This document shows positions 22,845-36,333 of a stretch of DNA of 64,000 nt, piece by piece. The position numbers and the translations under genes are program-made. Each line of letters begins with the position of its first letter. The stretch's first letter is position 1. The stretch is taken from positions 317,940 to 381,939 of the forward strand of contig CAWHMB010000004.1 of the NCBI GenBank assembly GCA_963830405.1, read 5' to 3'. This DNA comes from an uncultured Actinomycetes bacterium. Lineage in GTDB: Bacteria; Actinomycetota; Thermoleophilia; Solirubrobacterales; Solirubrobacteraceae. The notes beneath the pieces are model-generated. The model did no database searches and was not told the DNA's origin. It saw only the letters and a list, made by a program, of their open reading frames with translations.

Positions 22845-23062
22845 TCAGGACCGACCGGCGGCCGCCAGCGCGTCGCTCAGCTGCTCCTCTGTCTCATTGT
22901 CCAGCGAGGTCTGGATGAATTGTCCAGCGAGGTCTGGATGACCTTGCCCTGAATCTCGATCTCCGGTAGCACCTCGTCCAGCGTGATGCGGCGGACGAGC
23001 ATGATCACGGCGGCCTCGGCCTCGGAAGAGGGAGTGGACCCTTCCACCTGAGGCTGTCGCAC
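22845..23062 (-). pseudogene. DUF1269 C-terminal remnant broken by a 23-bp duplication
   Basis: Removing one repeat unit gives AVIMLVRRITLDEVLPEIEIQGKVIQTSLDNETEEQLSDAL, resembling ALFVVVEQATPDKAIAALQQYGGTVIKTSLSEDDTKKLQEAL. Confidence 0.6.
22896..22941. repeat. perfect 23-bp tandem duplication
   Basis: attgtccagcgaggtctggatga x2. Confidence 0.95.
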
Positions 23063-23091: not shown

Positions 23092-24552
23092 TCAGCCGAC
23101 ATCCGTAGCGAGGTCGGCTTCCTCCAGATGCTGTTCTTCGCGCTCCGTGGCGGGTATGTCCAGCTCGCGTGCGGCCTGGATCGCGGCGCGCCCGAGAGCG
23201 TTGGCGTAGGTGGGGAACGAGAATGGTACGAGGGCGAGCTGCTCGACCGTCATCCCCGAAGCGATGGCGATCGCCGCCAGTTGAGCCAGTTCAACTGCAC
23301 GCTCCCCGACGATGTGGCAGCCGAGGATGCTGTGGAGTCTGCGGTCGGCGATCAGTTTGCAGAAGCCGACCGGGCGGCCGTCGATAATCGGCCGGGGCAT
23401 CGACTCGAACGATTGCGTCGCAACGATGATGTCGTGCGTCTCTTGGGCTGTCGTCTCGGTGAGCCCCACGGAGGCGTATTCGGGGTCGGTAAAGCTGCCG
23501 AGCGGACTCACCTCCGCCGGGAGCGAGGTCGTACTTCCGAGCACGGCGTTTGTTGCGGCGATGTACGCCTCACGCACCGCTTCGTGGACGACCATCACGT
23601 GCCCGGTTACGTCGCCGGCGGCGAAGATGTGTGGCGCCGTCGTGCGAAGTTCAGCGTCCACCCGGACATAGCCCCGCTGGTCTGTCTCCACTGCCGCCGC
23701 GGCAAGGTTGAGTTCGGCAGTGTCTGCAACCCAGCCGATCGCTGCGACCGCCACGGTCGCTTCAATCGCGCTTCGACCCTCGTTCTTCGAGTGGATCAGC
23801 CGTACGCCGGCGGGACAGGACTCGAAGCGCTCAATCGTCCCGGCATCCTCGAGGACGTGGACTCCGGATGCTTTGAGCGAGGCCTTGACCGTCGTCGCGA
23901 CGTCTCGGTCTTCGCTCATCAGGATCCGCGGCCCGGCCTCGAATAGGGTCACGCGCGAGCCGAAGGCGTCGAAGATCGAAGCGACCTGCACGCCGGTCGC
24001 CCCAGCGCCGATCACGAGCATCGACGGCGGGGCAGAGGAAAGGGCCCAGGCATCGCTGTGGGTGGAGGTCAGCTCGAAGCCGGGCAGTGGAAGTCGGCGT
24101 GACGCTCCGCCTGTGCAGATGATGATCTTCTCCGCACTGAGTTGTGGTCCGGGCTCGCTTTCAATGGTGTGGGGGCCGGTGAAGCGGGCCGGGCCGGCGT
24201 GCTCGTGAACCGCTACGCCGGACTGCCGGAGATCTTCGCGTAGCGCTGAATGCGTGCGCACGTCGCCGGTGACCTCTCGCACACGCTCGAGCAGCCTCGA
24301 GTAGTCGAGCGACGGTGCACCAGCGGTGATCCCGTACCGCGGGAGCTGTCTTGCTTCGCGTATCAGGCGTGCGGCCTGCGCGAGCGTACGGACGGGGACA
24401 GGCCCGTCGTTGGCAGCCATACCTCCGAAGGCGTCCCGGGTGACGAGCGCGGTTTGGGCTCCGAGTCGCGCGCAGCGAAGCGCCGCGACGACGCCGGCTG
24501 GCCCGGCGCCGATTACGAGGACGTCCAGCGTCTCACGGTCCGACGCAGCCAT
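23092..24552 (-). CDS. dihydrolipoamide dehydrogenase-family flavoprotein lacking the redox-active disulfide
   Basis: GAGPAG FAD motif, GAGATG NAD motif, AAGDV; active-site region GGMAANDGPVPVR has no Cys; C-terminal FPTY instead of HPT. Confidence 0.85.
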   Translation of the reverse strand: MAASDRETLDVLVIGAGPAGVVAALRCARLGAQTALVTRDAFGGMAANDGPVPVRTLAQAARLIREARQLPRYGITAGAPSLDYSRLLERVREVTGDVRTHSALREDLRQSGVAVHEHAGPARFTGPHTIESEPGPQLSAEKIIICTGGASRRLPLPGFELTSTHSDAWALSSAPPSMLVIGAGATGVQVASIFDAFGSRVTLFEAGPRILMSEDRDVATTVKASLKASGVHVLEDAGTIERFESCPAGVRLIHSKNEGRSAIEATVAVAAIGWVADTAELNLAAAAVETDQRGYVRVDAELRTTAPHIFAAGDVTGHVMVVHEAVREAYIAATNAVLGSTTSLPAEVSPLGSFTDPEYASVGLTETTAQETHDIIVATQSFESMPRPIIDGRPVGFCKLIADRRLHSILGCHIVGERAVELAQLAAIAIASGMTVEQLALVPFSFPTYANALGRAAIQAARELDIPATEREEQHLEEADLATDVG

Positions 24553-24586
24553 CCTTCGATGTTCCGCGCCGCAGCGGCCGTCGTCC

Positions 24587-24603
24587 TCGTCCGTTTCGGG
24601 TGA
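24587..24603. promoter_or_regulatory. palindromic operator-like motif (1 mismatch)
   Basis: TCGTCC-GTTTC-GGGTGA in 77-bp divergent gap. Confidence 0.65.
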
Positions 24604-24629
24604 AGCGATAATGTGAGAGCCTCAACGGC

Positions 24630-25676
24630 ATGCGAGCAATCACAGCTGTGCCAGGCGAGCGCGGAGCCGTGGGCGTCGAAGAGGTCCCCGAACCAGGGCA
24701 CGGGGACGGTGCTCTGCTGGTCCAGGGTCGCCTGATGGGCGTTTGCGGCACGGACCGCGAGATAGCCGAAGGTGAATACGGCGAGCCGCCGCCTGGCGAT
24801 ACGAAGCTGATCATCGGCCACGAAGGTCTCGGTGAGGTGCTCGAAGCACCGGCCGGATCAGGGTTTCAAGCGGGCGACCTGGTGGTGGGGATCGTGCGCC
24901 GTCCAGATCCGGTCCCGTGTCCGGCGTGTGCCGCGGGCGAGTGGGACATGTGTCGCAATGGCCAGTTCGCCGAGCGAGGGATCGTCCGCCGCCACGGATA
25001 CGGAAGCGAGCAGTGGCGCGTTGAACCGGAGTTCGCGCTGCCGATCCCCACTGGGCTCGACGAGCTTGGCGTGTTGCTGGAGCCGACCTCCGTATTGGCA
25101 AAGGCATGGGATCAAGTCGACCGGATCTCCCAGCGGGCTTTCTTCGTCCGCGGCCGCGCGCTGGTCACCGGTGCGGGTCCAATCGGGCTGCTGGCGTGCC
25201 TTTTGGGCGTACAGCGTGGCTACGAGGTGCATGTCGTCGACTTGGCCGTCGGAGGTCCCAAGCGCGATCTCGTCGAGACCCTCGGCGCGCACTATCACGC
25301 CGGCGATGCCGCGGATGTCGACGCGGATGTTGAGGTCGTGATCGAGTGCACCGGCCTTGGCTCGGTCGGACGCTCCGCCGGACAGAGGCTGGTCAGCGGC
25401 GGGATCATGTGCCTGACCGGGATCATGAACCTCGCCCCGCAGTTCGACACCGATGCGACCACGATGAATCGCAACGCGGTGCTGAGAAACCTGGTCCTCT
25501 TCGGTACGGTGAACGCAGGTCGCCGGCACTGGGAGCAAGCCGTCGATGCGCTGGCCACCGCCGATCCGGCATGGCTGGGCGGGATCATCACGCGGCGCGT
25601 CCCGCTCACTAACTGGGCCGCGGCGCTGGACCGGCAGCCTGACGACATCAAGGTCGTCGTGGATCTCGCCGCATGA
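24630..25676 (+). CDS. zinc-dependent glucose 1-dehydrogenase-like (MDR superfamily)
   Basis: GVCGTD, IGHEGLG, LLEPTS, GAGPIG, FGTVNAGRRH. Confidence 0.85.
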   Translation: MRAITAVPGERGAVGVEEVPEPGHGDGALLVQGRLMGVCGTDREIAEGEYGEPPPGDTKLIIGHEGLGEVLEAPAGSGFQAGDLVVGIVRRPDPVPCPACAAGEWDMCRNGQFAERGIVRRHGYGSEQWRVEPEFALPIPTGLDELGVLLEPTSVLAKAWDQVDRISQRAFFVRGRALVTGAGPIGLLACLLGVQRGYEVHVVDLAVGGPKRDLVETLGAHYHAGDAADVDADVEVVIECTGLGSVGRSAGQRLVSGGIMCLTGIMNLAPQFDTDATTMNRNAVLRNLVLFGTVNAGRRHWEQAVDALATADPAWLGGIITRRVPLTNWAAALDRQPDDIKVVVDLAA

Positions 25677-25689
25677 CCTACACCGATCA

Positions 25690-26095
25690 GGAAGCTTGCG
25701 CCCGCCGAGGCGACCAGCCCATACGCCCGCGGCCGCCCGGCCGGCTAGAAATTCGACGCCATCAACGCGACGATCGCCGGCAAGATCAACGCGGCACCAA
25801 CACCCTCCAGGAACGACCATCCGAACATCAGCACGGCGAGACTCTGGGAGATGGCGGTGATGAACGAACCGCAACCGTAGATCACACACCCGATCGCGAA
25901 CGCACGCTTACGACCCAGGATCTGACCGAGCTTCCCGCCCGTGATCATCAACGAAGCCATCACCAGCGTGAAGACCGTGATCGCGGTCTGAATCACGGCC
26001 ACCGTCGTACCCACATCCTTGGTGACCGTCGCGATCGACACGTTCATCACCGAGCTGTCGAGCGTCATCAAGAACTGGCCCGAGGCCAGCGTCAA
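25690..26095 (-). pseudogene. truncated MFS transporter (paralogue of 9027..10496)
   Basis: First about 4 TMs (GGKLGQILGRKR, EGVGAALILP), in-frame TAG at 25745, short continuation RPRAYGLVASAG, then similarity is lost. Confidence 0.8.
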
Positions 26096-28433: not shown

Positions 28434-29780
28434 CTACTCGGTTTCGAGCTGTCCGAGCCAGCGCAGGGCGAGCAGGCCGGGGGCAAAGCAGTACTCGCCG
28501 CCGCGCGTGACGACGAACGGCGGGATCTCTGTCAGTCTGCGCCTGATCGGCCGCCTGGGGATCGTGAACATGCCGGAGCCGGCGGGACGGCCCACGAGTG
28601 GATCGGCTTCCGGTGGCGCTCCGATGAAGATGCCGTCGTTCAGCCACTGGGTCTTGACGAACTCGAACTGGCGTTTCAGGCGCGAGCCGGCGAAGACGAA
28701 TACGATGCCGCGGTCTTGCCCGTCGTCCTCGAGCACTCCGTGGGGCAGCATCGGCCCATAGCTGGTGCCTCGGCGGATCATGCGGTGCAGCCGGACATCG
28801 ACGCTGCCCTCGGCGTCGAGCGCATCCCGCGGGTTTGCCCGACGAGAGTGCGCTCCCAGAGGGCACTTGAACCCACGCGGATCGTCACCGTAGAGAAAGG
28901 CGTTGTTCCGGGAGTCGTCCGCCCCCAGCCCTCCGTCGTCACCGTCGGGCGCGACCGCAAGCGGCGCGCCGCTCTGCCACCGCCCTACGATTTTCGCACC
29001 AAGCTCGGCCTCCTCGTCTGGCGACTTCGCCTTCTCGCGGAGGTACCGGCGGTAGGCCGCGACACGCGTGTGGAGTTTGCGAAAGACGATGTACGTGCCG
29101 TTTCGGCCGAGCACCGCGGGTGTGGGCATTGGCGGTAACGATCCGCTTTCGTCCGGGTAGCCCAGAATGAATTCGCCGGGTTTGATCGGTTGCTCAAGCG
29201 GGGTCGATGACGCGATGCCGCTGCCCTCGATCGCTGGCTGTCCGATCCCGTCCTTGAAGCCAAACGACGTGCGTCCGGTCGGCAGCTGGTAACAGTCCTG
29301 CCGCCAGATCACCTCAACCCCAGGCAGCCGCTCCTGGGCTCGGTGAGCCCTATCGCGCAGCGCGTCCAGGCGAGCCGAGTCGGCGCAGAGCACGGAGAGC
29401 GCGACGTGCACCTGCGGGGTTCCCAGTGGTGATTCCCAATGCTCGGGAGCGCTGTCGCCGACGTCTCCGAGCTCTGCGGCGCGTGCGGCCATTCCCTGGC
29501 GAAATTCGGGCGCGAAACTGGCCAGCGAATCCCGAGGCACGCCGAGCGCCTTGAGTCCGTTGTACGTGAAGGCCACGGTGGTCCATCCCGCCGCGGCCTG
29601 ATCGGGGGCGATCCGGCCGGATTCAACCAACGGGTGCAGGCGTCTGACCAGCTCACGACCCGCCTGGCGATCGTCGATCCGAAGCAGCAGGTAGGTGCCG
29701 ACGTACGGGGATGGGCGCGGGTGAAGGGCGCCGCTCTGGATGTCATCCAAATCCAGCTCGATGCCCTCGCTGTTGCTCAT
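28434..29780 (-). CDS. dye-decolorizing (DyP-type) peroxidase
   Basis: LDDIQ, GFKDGIGQP (GxxDG), GAHSRRANPRD, RMIRRGTSYG, TRGGEYCFAP. Confidence 0.85.
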   Translation of the reverse strand: MSNSEGIELDLDDIQSGALHPRPSPYVGTYLLLRIDDRQAGRELVRRLHPLVESGRIAPDQAAAGWTTVAFTYNGLKALGVPRDSLASFAPEFRQGMAARAAELGDVGDSAPEHWESPLGTPQVHVALSVLCADSARLDALRDRAHRAQERLPGVEVIWRQDCYQLPTGRTSFGFKDGIGQPAIEGSGIASSTPLEQPIKPGEFILGYPDESGSLPPMPTPAVLGRNGTYIVFRKLHTRVAAYRRYLREKAKSPDEEAELGAKIVGRWQSGAPLAVAPDGDDGGLGADDSRNNAFLYGDDPRGFKCPLGAHSRRANPRDALDAEGSVDVRLHRMIRRGTSYGPMLPHGVLEDDGQDRGIVFVFAGSRLKRQFEFVKTQWLNDGIFIGAPPEADPLVGRPAGSGMFTIPRRPIRRRLTEIPPFVVTRGGEYCFAPGLLALRWLGQLETE

Positions 29781-29793
29781 CAGCGAGCTCACG

Positions 29794-30918
29794 CTAGTGG
29801 TGCTCCGGCTGCGCCGGCGGGGACGGGTTCGGCGTCGCCAGGTAGGGGAACACCTCCGAAGCGGGCCTCGAAGCCTGGTCGACGCCATCCCTGACAACGG
29901 GGCCGACGCCAGCGTTGATCAGGAGCGTCAACATCGTGTCCATCATGTCGTCGTTGAGCGCACGCCCGCCGCAGGTGGCGTGCGCGCCCCCATCGATCAG
30001 CGCACGCTCGATCTCGAAATACGACCCGGACGCCGCAAACGGCTTCGTCACGTCAACGACCAGGTAGTCGGCGAGAATGAGCTCCGTGAGGGGATGGTTG
30101 CCGTCCTGATAGGTCCAGTCCGGCCTGCCGTCGAGGCTGTCCCAGAAGTGGAGATTCGCGTTCAGCCGTGCGTGGTAGGCCCCGCTGTAGCCGTCGGCGA
30201 GGTGAAACCCGTCCTCCATGTTGTAGATGTCCCGGATCTCCAGATCGCGGTTGACCGGATCGAACTGCTTCGGCGCAAGCAACAGGTTCTTCACCTCCGG
30301 ACGGCCGACGCGCTCGATGCGGATGTCCAACCTGCCTCGCGTCAGCGTCTCGGAGAGGACGCCGACCAGCTGTGCACCAGGCAGGTACTTCGCACAATCG
30401 AGCTCGAGCACGAGACTCAGCACGTTCTTCCCATCCATGTAGATCGAGCCGGGATCGGTGAACGCGAGCTGTCCGGTGGCGATGGTCTTGAGCGTGGCCG
30501 GGGCGTCCATGATGAACGGATCCCAGCGCACTCCCGCGAACGCTCGTACGCCATCTGCCGAGCCGCCATGCTCGTCGTTTACCGTGAACGAGGCCGTCTC
30601 CCCTCTCGGCGTGTGGCAGGTGCACTCCTGCGACCCGTCGCCGACGGGTTCGGAGAACACGCAGTCGAACACGAACTCCTCAGCATCGTGAACGTCGAAG
30701 GGAGCTTGACCAGGCTGGGCATCGATCACCGCGACCGGCCGAAGACGGAAGCGGTACACGAGCCCGTCGGAGAACGTCGCTGTCGCCGGCGCGAACGGCA
30801 GGGTGTTCTGCACGAGCACGAGGTGACCCGGCTGCTCTGGACTCGGAAACGCATAGACATCGGTGATGTCTGCAATCGGATCGGCCAGTGCGCGCGGGCC
30901 GGAGATGTGGTCTGACAA
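29794..30918 (-). CDS. DUF4331-like protein
   Basis: MSDH...DPIADITDVYAF N-terminus; GRALNDD..D and FPYLATP C-terminus. Confidence 0.7.
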   Translation of the reverse strand: MSDHISGPRALADPIADITDVYAFPSPEQPGHLVLVQNTLPFAPATATFSDGLVYRFRLRPVAVIDAQPGQAPFDVHDAEEFVFDCVFSEPVGDGSQECTCHTPRGETASFTVNDEHGGSADGVRAFAGVRWDPFIMDAPATLKTIATGQLAFTDPGSIYMDGKNVLSLVLELDCAKYLPGAQLVGVLSETLTRGRLDIRIERVGRPEVKNLLLAPKQFDPVNRDLEIRDIYNMEDGFHLADGYSGAYHARLNANLHFWDSLDGRPDWTYQDGNHPLTELILADYLVVDVTKPFAASGSYFEIERALIDGGAHATCGGRALNDDMMDTMLTLLINAGVGPVVRDGVDQASRPASEVFPYLATPNPSPPAQPEHH

Positions 30919-30938: not shown

Positions 30939-31487
30939 TCAGTCCGCGGCCTCGTCGAGCAGCGGCTTCAACGCTGGGTGCTCGAGTGCCTCTCCGGCGT
31001 TGGGCTCGTCGAGCGCTAGCTGGAAGGCGCGGTTCACCCGCTGGGCCTTGCGGATCTCCTTGACGGTACCGCCGTAGTTCCTGGCGTACGCGGCGGCGGT
31101 GACCTGCGCGCCCAGGACGAACTCCTGAACCGCTTCGAGGTTCGGAAGGCCTTCATAGCCCTCGACATGCGAGAAGACGGCATCGAACAGTGCCAGCGTT
31201 GGCCCCGATGTGAAGAAGTCGTCCATGTAAGCGTCCCAGGGACCGTCAAAGCTCGTCGCGAAAAGGAGACGGGTGTCGCCGTCGAACAGCACGAACCTGG
31301 CCTCGTGAATGGTCGCGATCGCCATGTCGTACTCGCCCGGCCGGTATCCGGGGTGGTTCTGGAGATCGTGCAGAGCCTTCCGCAAGTCGCCTGCATGCCC
31401 GTCCTTGACCTTGAAGAACAAGCTGAACTCGCTCGCCGGTCCGACGGTTACGCCCGGGCGGCCACCGCCGGTCGCTGGTTCACTCAT
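30939..31487 (-). CDS. small conserved protein of DyP-peroxidase neighbourhoods
   Basis: TIHEARFV...LLFATSFDGPWDAYMDDF...FSHVEGY; first gene of co-oriented operon. Confidence 0.65.
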   Translation of the reverse strand: MSEPATGGGRPGVTVGPASEFSLFFKVKDGHAGDLRKALHDLQNHPGYRPGEYDMAIATIHEARFVLFDGDTRLLFATSFDGPWDAYMDDFFTSGPTLALFDAVFSHVEGYEGLPNLEAVQEFVLGAQVTAAAYARNYGGTVKEIRKAQRVNRAFQLALDEPNAGEALEHPALKPLLDEAAD

Positions 31488-31627
31488 CCGCACCCCCTAA
31501 CTCGGTCGTCCTCGCCGTACCGGCGAAGCATACCCAGCTCCCGAGCGACCTCCATTGGCGCGCCAGCGAGCCCGGTGTCCGCCCTGAACCCGCAGCTGAA
31601 GACCGTCACGGTACGGGTCCGTGCATT

Positions 31628-31644
31628 TCACCCGTTTCGGTCGA
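31628..31644. promoter_or_regulatory. operator-like motif (2 mismatches)
   Basis: TCACCC-GTTTC-GGTCGA(TGC); near-identical to 59702 copy, both upstream of CMD-A genes. Confidence 0.6.
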
Positions 31645-31717
31645 TGCGCTGATGCTCCGAGCCTTCGATTGTGGGTCTCCACGCAGTCGTCGGATCGGAT
31701 CTCTGAAGGGAGACCAT

Positions 31718-32065
31718 ATGCCTGTTGTTGGAGCGGACACTCATATGACGCTGTCGGGTGTCGCGTCCGGCGATGTCACGCTGCTGGACGCGGTGCTGGG
31801 GCTACGCGACGCGGAGCTCGGGCGCACCGGCCTGGACGCGCGGACATTCGCGTTGGTGAAGATCGCCGCTTTGGTCGCCCTCGACGCACCGCCGGCCTCG
31901 TATTCCTGGCAGGTCACCAACGCGCTGGCCGATGGCGCGACCGCGGAGGACATTCTTGCGGTGCTTCGGGCCGTCGCGCCCCAGGTCGGCGGGCCGAAGG
32001 TCGTCGCTGCCGCGCCGGAGATCATGGTGGCGCTCGGACTGGCGCTGCCCGAGGGCGGGAAGTAG
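31718..32065 (+). CDS. CMD/AhpD-fold protein, subfamily A copy 2
   Basis: MPVVGADTH...FALVKIAALVALDAPPASY...VGGPKVVAAAPEI; RBS GGGAGA. Confidence 0.75.
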   Translation: MPVVGADTHMTLSGVASGDVTLLDAVLGLRDAELGRTGLDARTFALVKIAALVALDAPPASYSWQVTNALADGATAEDILAVLRAVAPQVGGPKVVAAAPEIMVALGLALPEGGK

Positions 32066-32896: not shown

Positions 32897-33259
32897 ATGG
32901 TCGGACGAGAGGAACACCTGCTTCGTCGACTGACCGCGGGCGATGAGGGCTCGCTTCGGATGGTTCTGGCGATGGCGCCGGCGAGCACTGCGGTCGGCGT
33001 CGAATTCGAGGCGGTCCTGACGCGCAGGACCAGAATGCTCGTTCGGCTGGCGGCACTGCTCGCCCTCGATGCATCGACCGCGTCACTGCGCTGGGCTGCC
33101 GAGCTTGCGGCCTGCGCCGGAGCCGACGATGCGGACATCGTTGGCGTGCTGATCGCGGTGGCCCCCGACGTCGGTGCGGCGCAGATTGTTTCCATCGCGC
33201 CGAGACTCGCCCTCGCGATCGGTTACGAGATCGACCTGGACGACTGGGACGGGTCCTGA
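32897..33259 (+). CDS. CMD/AhpD-fold protein, subfamily B (convergent with MalT-like 2)
   Basis: LLRRLTAGDE...LVRLAALLALDA...GVLIAVAPDVG...PRLALAIGY. Confidence 0.7.
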   Translation: MVGREEHLLRRLTAGDEGSLRMVLAMAPASTAVGVEFEAVLTRRTRMLVRLAALLALDASTASLRWAAELAACAGADDADIVGVLIAVAPDVGAAQIVSIAPRLALAIGYEIDLDDWDGS

Positions 33260-33262
33260 GCC

Positions 33263-35596
33263 CTACGCTCCGAGAAGGCCAGCGCGGGACGCGTGTGCCA
33301 CCGCCTCGGACCGGGACGCGGCATCGAGCTTGCGGTAGATCGCATGTGCTTGGGTCTTGACCGTATTGACCGAGACATCAAGACGCTCAGCTATCTCGCG
33401 AAACGAGCGGTGGCTCGGGAGGAACCTCAGAATTCGAAGTTCGGCGATGGTCAGCGACGAGGGACCCAGCAGCGCGGTTTCCGCCAGCGTGTCGATCTGT
33501 CCCCACGCCTGGTCGAAGTACCGTTGGAAGATGACCACGCCGGCCGTCGCGCGGGCCAGTCGCGATGCCTCAGCCAGCAGCGTCCGGGCCCGCACGGTGT
33601 CGGCCAACCCGAGAGCGGCACGTGCCAGCATGATTCGGGCTTCGGCGCCATACCATGGAAGGAAGTCGCCGAGGACGGCCAGGAGGTCGGCGGCATGACG
33701 GAGATCGCGCTTCGCTTCGTCCGCGCGCCCTTGGTGGGCACGGGTGGCTGCCGACACCGCAAAAACCAGCGCGGAGAGCGGGTATCCCGAGAGCCAGGGG
33801 CCGTCGACGACGATCGTCGCCCGGTCCGCCAGCTCGGTCGCGGTCTCCCAGTCGTCGTGCTCGATCGCCAGGATTACAAGTTGAGCGAGGCACAGCGCCG
33901 TGACGGTAGGCGCAGCTCCGCCGCTCAACTGCACGCCCTCCTCGAGCTGCTGCTTGGCGCTTTGGCAGTGACCCGTCAAGAAGTCGGCCGTGCCGCGGAG
34001 CAAATAGCAGACGGGGCGCCAGGCGCTGTGCTCCGGTTCGAGCTCGAGCGCGCGGGTCGCAGCGCGCGCCATGTCGACCGCGGCCACCCTGGGCGCCATC
34101 GCCTCGATGATCGCGATTCCGGCCCCCAGTGACTCTGTGCCTTTGGCCGCTCGGCCCCGCTCGACAGCCTCCCTGGCAAGCAGCCCCCATCGCCGGGCCT
34201 CAACGACCTTTCCGGTCGCGAGCCAACTGTGCGCCGCGGCGAGTGCGAGCGGTGCGTAGTCGGCGATCTGTTCGGTGCTGAAACGGCTCAGCCAGCCTTG
34301 AACGATGTCCGTGCGCCCATGGCTGACGTATGCGACCATGTTGGCCCAGAGCAGATCGCCGGTCCGCTCGACATCGTCGGCGGCCACAGCGTGATCGATC
34401 GCACGGTCGACGTCGTGGTGCCGCCTGAGCCAAGTACTCGCGCGCCGGTGCAGTCGAGTCTCGACCTCGGGCTCGATGCGGCGCAGTTCCGCTTGGAGCA
34501 TCTCCCGGAAGAGCCCGTGCAAGCGGAATCGCTCATGCTTGCGGTCCAGCGGCGCGAGCATTAGATCGGAGCGGGCCAAGCGCGCCAGTGTCATCGCCGA
34601 CCCACGTTGCTTGAGCGTCGCGTCGCAGAGCGGACCGGACAGCTCGTCGAGCACCGAGCTGCGGATCAAGAAGCGTGCGGTATCGGGCGAGAGCGCTGAC
34701 AGCAACTCATCGCGGAAGTACTCGGCGATCAGGGGATCACCCCCTCCGAAGCCGCGCAGGCCGGCGACTGGGTCGTGTTCGCTGCGCAGCGAAAGCGCCG
34801 CGAGGTACAAGCCCGCCGGCCATCCCTCGGTTAGCTCTAGCAGCGCCCGCAGCTCATCGAGCTTGGGCTCGAGCCCGGCCGAGCGGAGCAAGCTCGCCGC
34901 TTCCGTAGGGCTCATCTTCAGATCGTCCGTCCGGAGCTCGATCAGCGCTCTGTGCGCACGGAGCCGACCGACGGGCAGCGGCGGCTCGACCCGCGACGCC
35001 AGCGCAACCTGCGATCCCTGGCGCATCTGCTCGGTCAACGCCATCACGACGGCTCTCAACAGCGGAGCGCGGATAGCGTTCGCATCATCGAGCACAACGA
35101 CGCATTCGCCAACTTCACAGTGCAGGCATCGCAGAAGCCACGGCAGCGCCGCGTTCCCGTCGCGCTGGAGCACCGATGCCAAATCGTGCTTCACCTCCGG
35201 GCCGATCCAGCCGAGGTCCGAAAACGGCTGCACGATTGACGTCGCGATCGCGTCACCATCTCGCTGGTCGATAGCCAGCCGGACGAAGGGGCGCTCGTCG
35301 AACTCGGCCCAGTCAGCCAGCAGCGTCGACTTCCCATAACCGGCTGGTGCGACGATCAACGCCACTGTGGCGTCGCGGGCGCTGCTCAGGCGTTCGACCA
35401 GAGCATCACGCCGAACGAATCCTTCGCGGAACGGCGGCATCCCATAAGCAAGCTCCGAAGAACGCGCTGCCACCACGGCCCGCATCCGCAGTGCGGCCGG
35501 TGAATCCGGCGAGGCGCTAGTGACGGTCGCTCTCGCCGCCATGCCGGTGGGCTTGAGTGCGTCTTTGCTCGCTGGGCCTGTGGACACAGTATTCAT
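33263..35596 (-). CDS. MalT-like STAND ATPase/LuxR-HTH regulator 2
   Basis: APAGYGKST, VVLDDA, EGWPAGLYL, SVNTVKTQAHAIYRKL; start uncertain (ORF open to 35677). Confidence 0.9.
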   Translation of the reverse strand: MNTVSTGPASKDALKPTGMAARATVTSASPDSPAALRMRAVVAARSSELAYGMPPFREGFVRRDALVERLSSARDATVALIVAPAGYGKSTLLADWAEFDERPFVRLAIDQRDGDAIATSIVQPFSDLGWIGPEVKHDLASVLQRDGNAALPWLLRCLHCEVGECVVVLDDANAIRAPLLRAVVMALTEQMRQGSQVALASRVEPPLPVGRLRAHRALIELRTDDLKMSPTEAASLLRSAGLEPKLDELRALLELTEGWPAGLYLAALSLRSEHDPVAGLRGFGGGDPLIAEYFRDELLSALSPDTARFLIRSSVLDELSGPLCDATLKQRGSAMTLARLARSDLMLAPLDRKHERFRLHGLFREMLQAELRRIEPEVETRLHRRASTWLRRHHDVDRAIDHAVAADDVERTGDLLWANMVAYVSHGRTDIVQGWLSRFSTEQIADYAPLALAAAHSWLATGKVVEARRWGLLAREAVERGRAAKGTESLGAGIAIIEAMAPRVAAVDMARAATRALELEPEHSAWRPVCYLLRGTADFLTGHCQSAKQQLEEGVQLSGGAAPTVTALCLAQLVILAIEHDDWETATELADRATIVVDGPWLSGYPLSALVFAVSAATRAHQGRADEAKRDLRHAADLLAVLGDFLPWYGAEARIMLARAALGLADTVRARTLLAEASRLARATAGVVIFQRYFDQAWGQIDTLAETALLGPSSLTIAELRILRFLPSHRSFREIAERLDVSVNTVKTQAHAIYRKLDAASRSEAVAHASRAGLLGA

Positions 35597-35640
35597 GCAG
35601 TATTCATGTGGCGCCGCTTTGTCGCCCCCTGAGTTGTCTC

Positions 35641-36333
35641 TCATCGACACCCATCCCGCAAGGTGGCACGCCACCACGTTGCGAGGGGTGGCACCACCCC
35701 CTTTTCATGGGTCTCCGCTGATTCTTTTGGGATCACCCCGTTCGCGTGATGCGCCCGGTGCAGAGCGCTCCTAGTCTTGGATGTGCGGTCGCTCGAAGTA
35801 ATTGGCACGGCCGCGGCCACGGTCGTGCCACCTCCGGCCTGGGAGTCGATGTCGAGGTGACCGTGGACCGCGGCTAGCCGGTCGCGCATGTTGCGCAGCC
35901 CCACCCCGTCGTGAGCGGCGGCAACGTCGAACCCGGGACCGTCATCGCTCACATCGAGGTGAAGTTCGTTGGCGTCGGCATACAGCCGGATTGAGATGTG
36001 GGTCCCGGGGCCGCCGTGCTTGGTGGCGTTCTGGACCGCCTCCAGGCAGCAGAAGTACAGCGGCGCTTCGAGCTCGGGCGCAAAATCGCCGGCGTGCTCC
36101 TCGGTGAACGTGACCCGCCTGGCCGAACTGGCAGCCAGGAGTCGGAGCGTGCCGGCCAGCCCGGAGTTGGCGAGCACCGTGGGGTAGATCCCGCGGCCGA
36201 GGTCGCGGAGCTCATCGATCGCTACTTCGAGCTCCTCTGCCAACTCGCTCAGCCGGGCGCGCAGCTCGGGCTGATCGGACGTCATCTCGCCGGCAAGGTC
36301 GCCTCTACGACTAGCTGCCACCGCCGCCCCCAA
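35641..36333 (-). pseudogene. sensor histidine kinase C-terminal fragment (HATPase only)
   Basis: IDELRDLGRGIYP, EAVQNATKH, DDGPGF, GVGLRNMRDRL, GGGTTV; no H-box (compare ERDIHDG in 61688..63538) and no sensor domain. Confidence 0.7.
35733..35749. promoter_or_regulatory. palindromic operator-like motif (1 mismatch)
   Basis: TCACCC-CGTTC-GCGTGA(TG) upstream of MalT-like 2. Confidence 0.65.

Follow-up and report, generated by a model that had tools for sequence, protein, structure and literature searches.

A Conserved Cysteine-Less Flavoprotein Family of the Disulfide Reductase Fold and Its Sugar Dehydrogenase Neighbors

The window analyzed here, a stretch of 64,000 nucleotides from an uncultured Solirubrobacteraceae bacterium, encodes a flavoprotein of the disulfide reductase fold. 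Throughout the family, which is under purifying selection, other residues stand in for its redox disulfide, its His-Glu dyad, and its flavin-side Lys/Glu pair. The family is real, conserved, misannotated, and apparently uncharacterized; a partial literature search found no paper on it. Judged from sequence, the favored reading, held with modest confidence, is that of an FAD-dependent NADH:acceptor oxidoreductase, or diaphorase, which represents an undescribed subfamily and closes an NAD+/NADH loop. The electrons of NADH probably pass to a non-sulfur acceptor such as quinone or oxygen.

Fold and Active Site

The flavoprotein gene and its diagnostic segments are as follows.

23092–24552, minus strand: Cys-less flavoprotein of the disulfide reductase fold, 486 aa (domain matches, model, and alignment)
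24388–24426, minus strand: GGMAANDGPVPVR, residues 43–55; redox Cys replaced by A46 and P51, flavin-N5 Lys by R55
23986–24009, minus strand: GAGATGVQ of the NAD domain, an NAD-type GxGxxG; nicotinamide-binding Glu replaced by Gln189
23938–23940, minus strand: Glu205, the NAD-specificity residue (equivalent to E. coli Lpd E205)
23200–23217, minus strand: FPTYAN, residues 446–451; Phe446 and Asn451 at the positions of the His-Glu dyad

Pyr_redox_2 and dimerization domains are found by Pfam. The model has a pLDDT of 94.5 and a TM score of 0.89 to lipoamide dehydrogenases; it is based on a 102-sequence alignment, and an earlier 20-sequence model (pLDDT 53) was discarded. The protein has the FAD, NAD(P), and interface domains of the superfamily together with the GD motif and a pair of GxGxxG motifs, and its nucleotide-binding motifs are both intact. 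At the conserved GR motif, its sequence is GW.

The first-pass annotation had described the loss of both redox cysteines in GGMAANDGPVPVR and FPTYAN in place of HPTxxE, and alignment to E. coli Lpd bears out both. Cys45 and Cys50 of Lpd correspond to Ala46 and Pro51, such that the CxxxxC of E3, glutathione reductase, and MerA is missing. His445 and Glu450 correspond to Phe446 and Asn451, and the C-terminal dyad of E3 and glutathione reductase is likewise missing. Classical dithiol chemistry at this active site is impossible. The combination of intact cofactor sites and an absent dithiol is shared with LpdA- and Irc15p-like diaphorases.

A further replacement had been overlooked. Arg55 and Gln189 take the place of the flavin-side Lys/Glu pair at 81/81 loci, while Lys and Glu occupy these positions in all 128 outgroup sequences, including SthA and LpdA. 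In the superfamily, the Lys hydrogen bonds to flavin N5 and the Glu, which is nearly always conserved, binds the nicotinamide carboxamide; together they stabilize the FAD–nicotinamide complex (PMC1924876).

Conservation and Distribution

Among 120 homologues of 71–82% identity, A46 is invariant (120/120), and P51 and F446 are each found in 119/120; A46 and P51 are present at 81/81 genome loci. The same genome harbors a second divergent pair, in which the flavoprotein is 76% and the glucose dehydrogenase (GDH) 86% identical to those of the window, with dN/dS between the copies of 0.17 and 0.13, respectively. Given the near-invariance and the dN/dS of 0.17, the residue changes are neither errors nor decay, and a pseudogene reading of the flavoprotein is ruled out. 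The second copy (L081:8568-12734) consists of MarC, lactonase, and GDH divergent from the flavoprotein and is inserted near hisS–aspS. A DyP operon beside it was considered and rejected, as the cassette does not contain DyP.

Relatives are found in seven phyla: Actinomycetota (Solirubrobacterales and others), Pseudomonadota, Acidobacteriota, Myxococcota, Planctomycetota, Binatota, and Rokubacteria. Across phyla, identity remains at 60–80% and surface conservation is very high. Occurrence is patchy, with the family present in 12/201 genomes of the order. Among 400 genomes sampled across the phylum, only this one has a close member, and the plasmid search yielded nothing at E < 1e-100.

Phylogeny and Family Placement

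Phylogenetic analysis, as had been proposed, places the flavoprotein family in its own clade (100/100) within a larger Arg/Gln clade (100/100). Locus L122 was excluded from the trees, Irc15p is absent from them, and the unpublished genomes G201 and G247 underlie none of the claims made here. SthA and LpdA form separate clades, each with 100/100 support, and the flavoprotein belongs to neither. Support for the deep placement of the family is weak, and the AU test does not reject SthA as its sister (p = 0.25). The protein scores below all 25 listed NCBIfam cut-offs, including those of E3 (317 versus 409), MerA (296 versus 454), SthA (NF003585, 242.8 versus 465), and LpdA (NF005883, 203.2 versus 479). 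The likeness to SthA and LpdA drawn in the first-pass annotation is thus one of analogy rather than membership. Proper E3 genes are present elsewhere in the same genome, and the database annotation as dihydrolipoamide dehydrogenase E3 is wrong for the function of this protein.

The sister group (~40–47% identity) has likewise lost the dyad and carries the Arg, the Gln, and the Trp. CxxxxC is kept in four sister proteins (P0124, P0130, P0138, and P0139), which fall in no NCBIfam family. Reconstruction of cysteine loss gives three state changes. In the simplest reading, the Arg/Gln-type changes preceded the loss of the cysteines, which may have occurred more than once. Uniqueness of the double cysteine loss is ruled out by Irc15p, four actinobacterial SthAs, and one LpdA. 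At locus L165, the genes around P0124 are of an unrelated GAF/SpoIIE-STAS type.

Sugar Dehydrogenase Neighbors and the Shared Operator

The flavoprotein gene is divergent from a GDH gene, and the two are separated by a gap containing a palindrome.

24630–25676, plus strand: Zn-dependent MDR glucose/aldose 1-dehydrogenase, 348 aa, with catalytic Zn ligands C39/H64/E65 and Asp204
24587–24603, no strand: one degenerate TCAYCC-N-GGRTGA operator, the motif found island-wide, within the 77-bp gap (24553–24629), by motif scan
31628–31644, no strand: TCAYCC-N-GGRTGA operator upstream of the DyP operon, by motif scan

The GDH matches Pfam Glu_dehyd_C (6e-57), and its best match is the Haloferax GDH (3.5e-41). 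The Zn ligands and the predicted sugar-site residues T41, E115, E151, and N295 that mark an MDR glucose 1-dehydrogenase are present and conserved. A divergent GDH is found at 21/80 flavoprotein loci, all in Actinomycetota, and at the second copy described above; two of the 21 are frameshifted, and a further GDH remnant lies in L043. GDH is absent from 37/58 actinobacterial and 22/22 other loci. The pairing is therefore not family-wide but limited by lineage, and the lack of conservation that the first-pass annotation had named as refuting its reading is partly borne out. A recurrent link to an NAD-reducing sugar dehydrogenase is nevertheless borne out, as 12 other actinobacterial loci, which are close kin, carry G6PDH, and GDH and G6PDH occur together in 0/80. 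A gluconolactonase-family gene is found at 27 loci, 16 with GDH and 11 with G6PDH. None of these partners (GDH, G6PDH, or the DyP cassette described below) is found at 12/80 loci. All such neighbor counts overstate independence, since many loci are akin and the genes sit in a co-regulated island; as that island is also mobile, adjacency may reflect hitch-hiking.

The link to the flavoprotein is tighter when viewed from the GDH side. In the 201-genome sample of the order, 4/4 GDH copies of at least 85% identity adjoin the flavoprotein, and the GDH group at 51–57% identity does not. A lactonase gene comes after GDH in relatives and is retained by the second copy but missing from the window, where a truncated MFS gene (116 aa, window 25673–26095) abuts the GDH stop; together, these suggest a deletion.

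The single operator reported for the 77-bp gap is confirmed as one degenerate copy. In the window, the palindrome gives 31 strand-hits against 1.5 expected, and most related flavoprotein/GDH pairs retain it in their gap. Approximately 20 sites (window 3311–63841) mark an island-wide regulon. On the contig, the palindrome is enriched in this region, and matches also cluster at C1 850–900 kb. A LuxR/MalT-like gene (33263–35677) is a candidate regulator. No sigma-70 promoters or terminators were found by scan. Just 3′ of the flavoprotein gene lies a short tandem duplication of ~19 bases (ttgtccagcgaggtctgga, window 22911–22942).

Coenzyme Signatures

Glu205 corresponds to the residue changed to switch E. 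coli Lpd to NADP (PMC5817062). This position is E/D in 58/59 actinobacterial copies and Gln in 17/22 non-actinobacterial ones, and Arg is absent from the flavoprotein at the positions of R198 and R204 of GR in the alignment. In the GDH, the second Rossmann strand ends in Asp204 (23/23); the protein is a glucose dehydrogenase homologue, as had been stated, of the Zn-MDR type, but looks NAD+-preferring rather than NAD(P)-dependent. Its signature agrees with that of the flavoprotein, in support of the first-pass proposal that the latter reoxidizes the cofactor of the GDH. The linked G6PDHs (L010:3547-4986 and 11 similar loci) have Asp-Ile where the E. coli enzyme has Gly-Arg50. Absence of that Arg marks enzymes that are not NADP-specific (PMC8546961), and the linked G6PDHs are predicted from sequence to be NAD+-preferring. 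With NAD-type signatures in all three enzymes, the actinobacterial module looks NAD(H)-only.

The DyP Cassette

A peroxidase operon is the other recurrent neighbor.

28434–29780, minus strand: DyP peroxidase of class V (C), with Deinococcus DrDyP as a close relative
29794–30918, minus strand: DUF4331-like protein of the DyP operon
30939–31493, minus strand: EthD-like protein, 184 aa, first gene of the DyP operon

The DyP of the window matches DrDyP with an E value of 6e-126, and the EthD-like protein shares 28% identity with the ~190-aa protein that partners DyP in other phyla. All 22 non-actinobacterial flavoprotein loci contain a co-directional cassette of EthD-like protein, class V DyP, and ThuA-like protein, and DyP is near the flavoprotein in 17/58 actinobacterial loci, as in this window. 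In the reciprocal search, only 12/80 loci of this DyP subfamily (7/49 with long flanks) have the flavoprotein. The dependence is one-way, and an obligate partnership is ruled out. Complex prediction for the two proteins scored 0.00, which is no answer and counts neither way. DyPs that work with quinone reductases and lipoamide dehydrogenase have been reported (PMC11789138).

In the cassette (L167–L246), the EthD-like ~190-aa protein is present in 74/80 and the 338-aa ThuA-like protein in 66/80 loci; no Pfam family covers either of these partners. An SBF transporter frequently accompanies the cassette. At three near-identical metagenome loci of one lineage (L190:3756-5210, L189, and L197), a Cys-less SthA-clade protein, which in L190 scores 433 bits against the cut-off of 465, replaces the flavoprotein after the cassette. 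Divergent from the DyP operon of the window are two small ORFs without CxxC (31652–32065 and ~32900–33259); they are CMD/AhpD-like by eye and have no NCBIfam match at 1e-20.

Proposed Function

Beyond sequence, fold, tree, and neighborhood, we infer every step. As in all relatives, NADH would deliver its hydride to the re face of FAD. Since the si face has no disulfide, FADH2 would hand its electrons directly to a non-thiol acceptor, which may be a quinone, a phenoxy radical, a metal, or O2, possibly bound where D49, R55, and F446 line the vacated pocket. The actinobacterial enzyme would be co-regulated with an NAD+-type GDH (elsewhere G6PDH), usually plus a lactonase, such that oxidation of a sugar to its lactone would yield NADH and the flavoprotein would consume it, giving back NAD+. 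Beside the DyP cassette, it may act as an optional helper that re-reduces quinones or radicals or supplies H2O2. Irc15p, LpdA, and the DyPs reported to work with quinone reductases or lipoamide dehydrogenase set precedents for this reading.

The first-pass annotation proposed a transhydrogenase or quinone reductase, a plausible chemistry, and the latter, or a diaphorase, fits. The former would shuttle hydride between NADH and NADP+ in ping-pong fashion at a single re-face site, converting GDH-made NADH to NADPH or the reverse; it is less likely than a diaphorase and, overall, unlikely. Pyridine nucleotide is confined to the re face of the flavin (PMC1924876), so a transhydrogenase must fit both coenzymes at one site, which the NAD signature of Glu205 and the absence of NADP-binding arginines disfavor. 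The single-residue rule is not absolute, as one Streptomyces-type SthA has Glu-Lys at this site, and the Gln205 of most non-actinobacterial members could admit NADP. SthA also functions without a disulfide, has Tyr at the His position, and includes actinobacterial members without both cysteines; LpdA has both activities (PMC2440308), the sister relation to SthA is compatible with the AU result, and an SthA-clade protein takes the place of the flavoprotein after the DyP cassette in that one metagenome lineage. However, the flavoprotein lies outside the SthA clade, scores below the SthA cut-off (243 versus 465), and belongs to a family that lost the Lys/Glu pair SthA and LpdA keep.

Loss of that pair, which stabilizes the FAD–nicotinamide complex (PMC1924876), could also lead to slow or no turnover, as in an FAD/NADH-binding redox sensor or scaffold with a stable reduced or charge-transfer state. 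Such a role would account for the joint replacement of five positions with catalytic or cofactor-tuning roles (the two Cys, the His-Glu dyad, the Lys, and the Glu), one of them a Glu that the superfamily nearly always conserves (PMC1924876), and for the very high surface conservation at 60–80% identity. It is nonetheless improbable, as Arg and Gln are conservative, invariant swaps already present in the CxxxxC-keeping sister proteins, and no conserved signaling partner adjoins the gene. Least plausible, and very unlikely, is persistent disulfide reduction through C146, C398, and C412, even though all 120 homologues and all 81 loci have these cysteines. These residues align to buried hydrophobic strand positions that in the 128 outgroups are mostly Ala, Val/Ile, and Ala/Val, respectively; in the model, C146 lies in the FAD-binding ATG motif and C398 and C412 in interface-domain strands. 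The sister group lacks C412, and the flavoprotein has neither a CxxC nor a C-terminal thiol arm. We infer structural roles for all three.

An extension of the diaphorase proposal, which is speculative and on balance doubtful, is that the Arg55/Gln189 swap retunes the flavin to suit a new acceptor and that the flavoprotein serves an undescribed class V DyP system of the cytoplasm as its dedicated NADH-using arm. This system would comprise the EthD-like protein, DyP, a ThuA-like or DUF4331 protein, and a feed from an NAD+-linked sugar dehydrogenase. The physiological role of class V DyPs is open (PMC8197335, PMC10820274); the extension, if true, would point to their physiological reaction, and the flavoprotein may thus offer a handle on them.

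Comparison with Known Systems

Common in soil metagenomes, with members in at least seven phyla, the family carries an annotation as lipoamide dehydrogenase, a function it is unable to have. E3 is nonetheless its best HMM (317 bits), with a TM score of 0.89 and the NAD-type Glu205 in common; the flavoprotein differs in falling below the cut-off of 409 and in lacking CxxxxC and His-Glu. In 2-KPCC, too, the dyad His has given way to Phe (PMC8358701), but that enzyme keeps and needs both cysteines.

SthA (NF003585) shares the absent disulfide and an aromatic residue in place of His, and some members lack both cysteines, yet it keeps the Lys, the Glu, and usually the C-terminal Glu. M. tuberculosis LpdA (Rv3303c; NF005883), which has quinone reductase (PMC6296175) and transhydrogenase activity, resembles the flavoprotein in its incomplete dithiol and absent His-Glu dyad; in contrast, it keeps Lys/Glu, has no acid at position 205, and retains one Cys in most members. 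Yeast Irc15p has the Lpd fold and has lost both redox cysteines; it oxidizes NADH with menadione, DCPIP, or ferricyanide but not disulfides (PMC6296175). However, Irc15p arose recently as a paralogue of Lpd1 and retains the His-Glu dyad, whereas the flavoprotein has lost it and forms a separate bacterial clade.

The idea of a Cys-less diaphorase is thus already known, and the same loss has occurred in other branches; it is this family that is undescribed. It represents a further independent case of the fold abandoning thiol chemistry and a natural test of the role of the conserved flavin-side Lys/Glu pair, and its sister proteins preserve an intermediate state in which Arg/Gln is present, the dyad is gone, and CxxxxC is kept.
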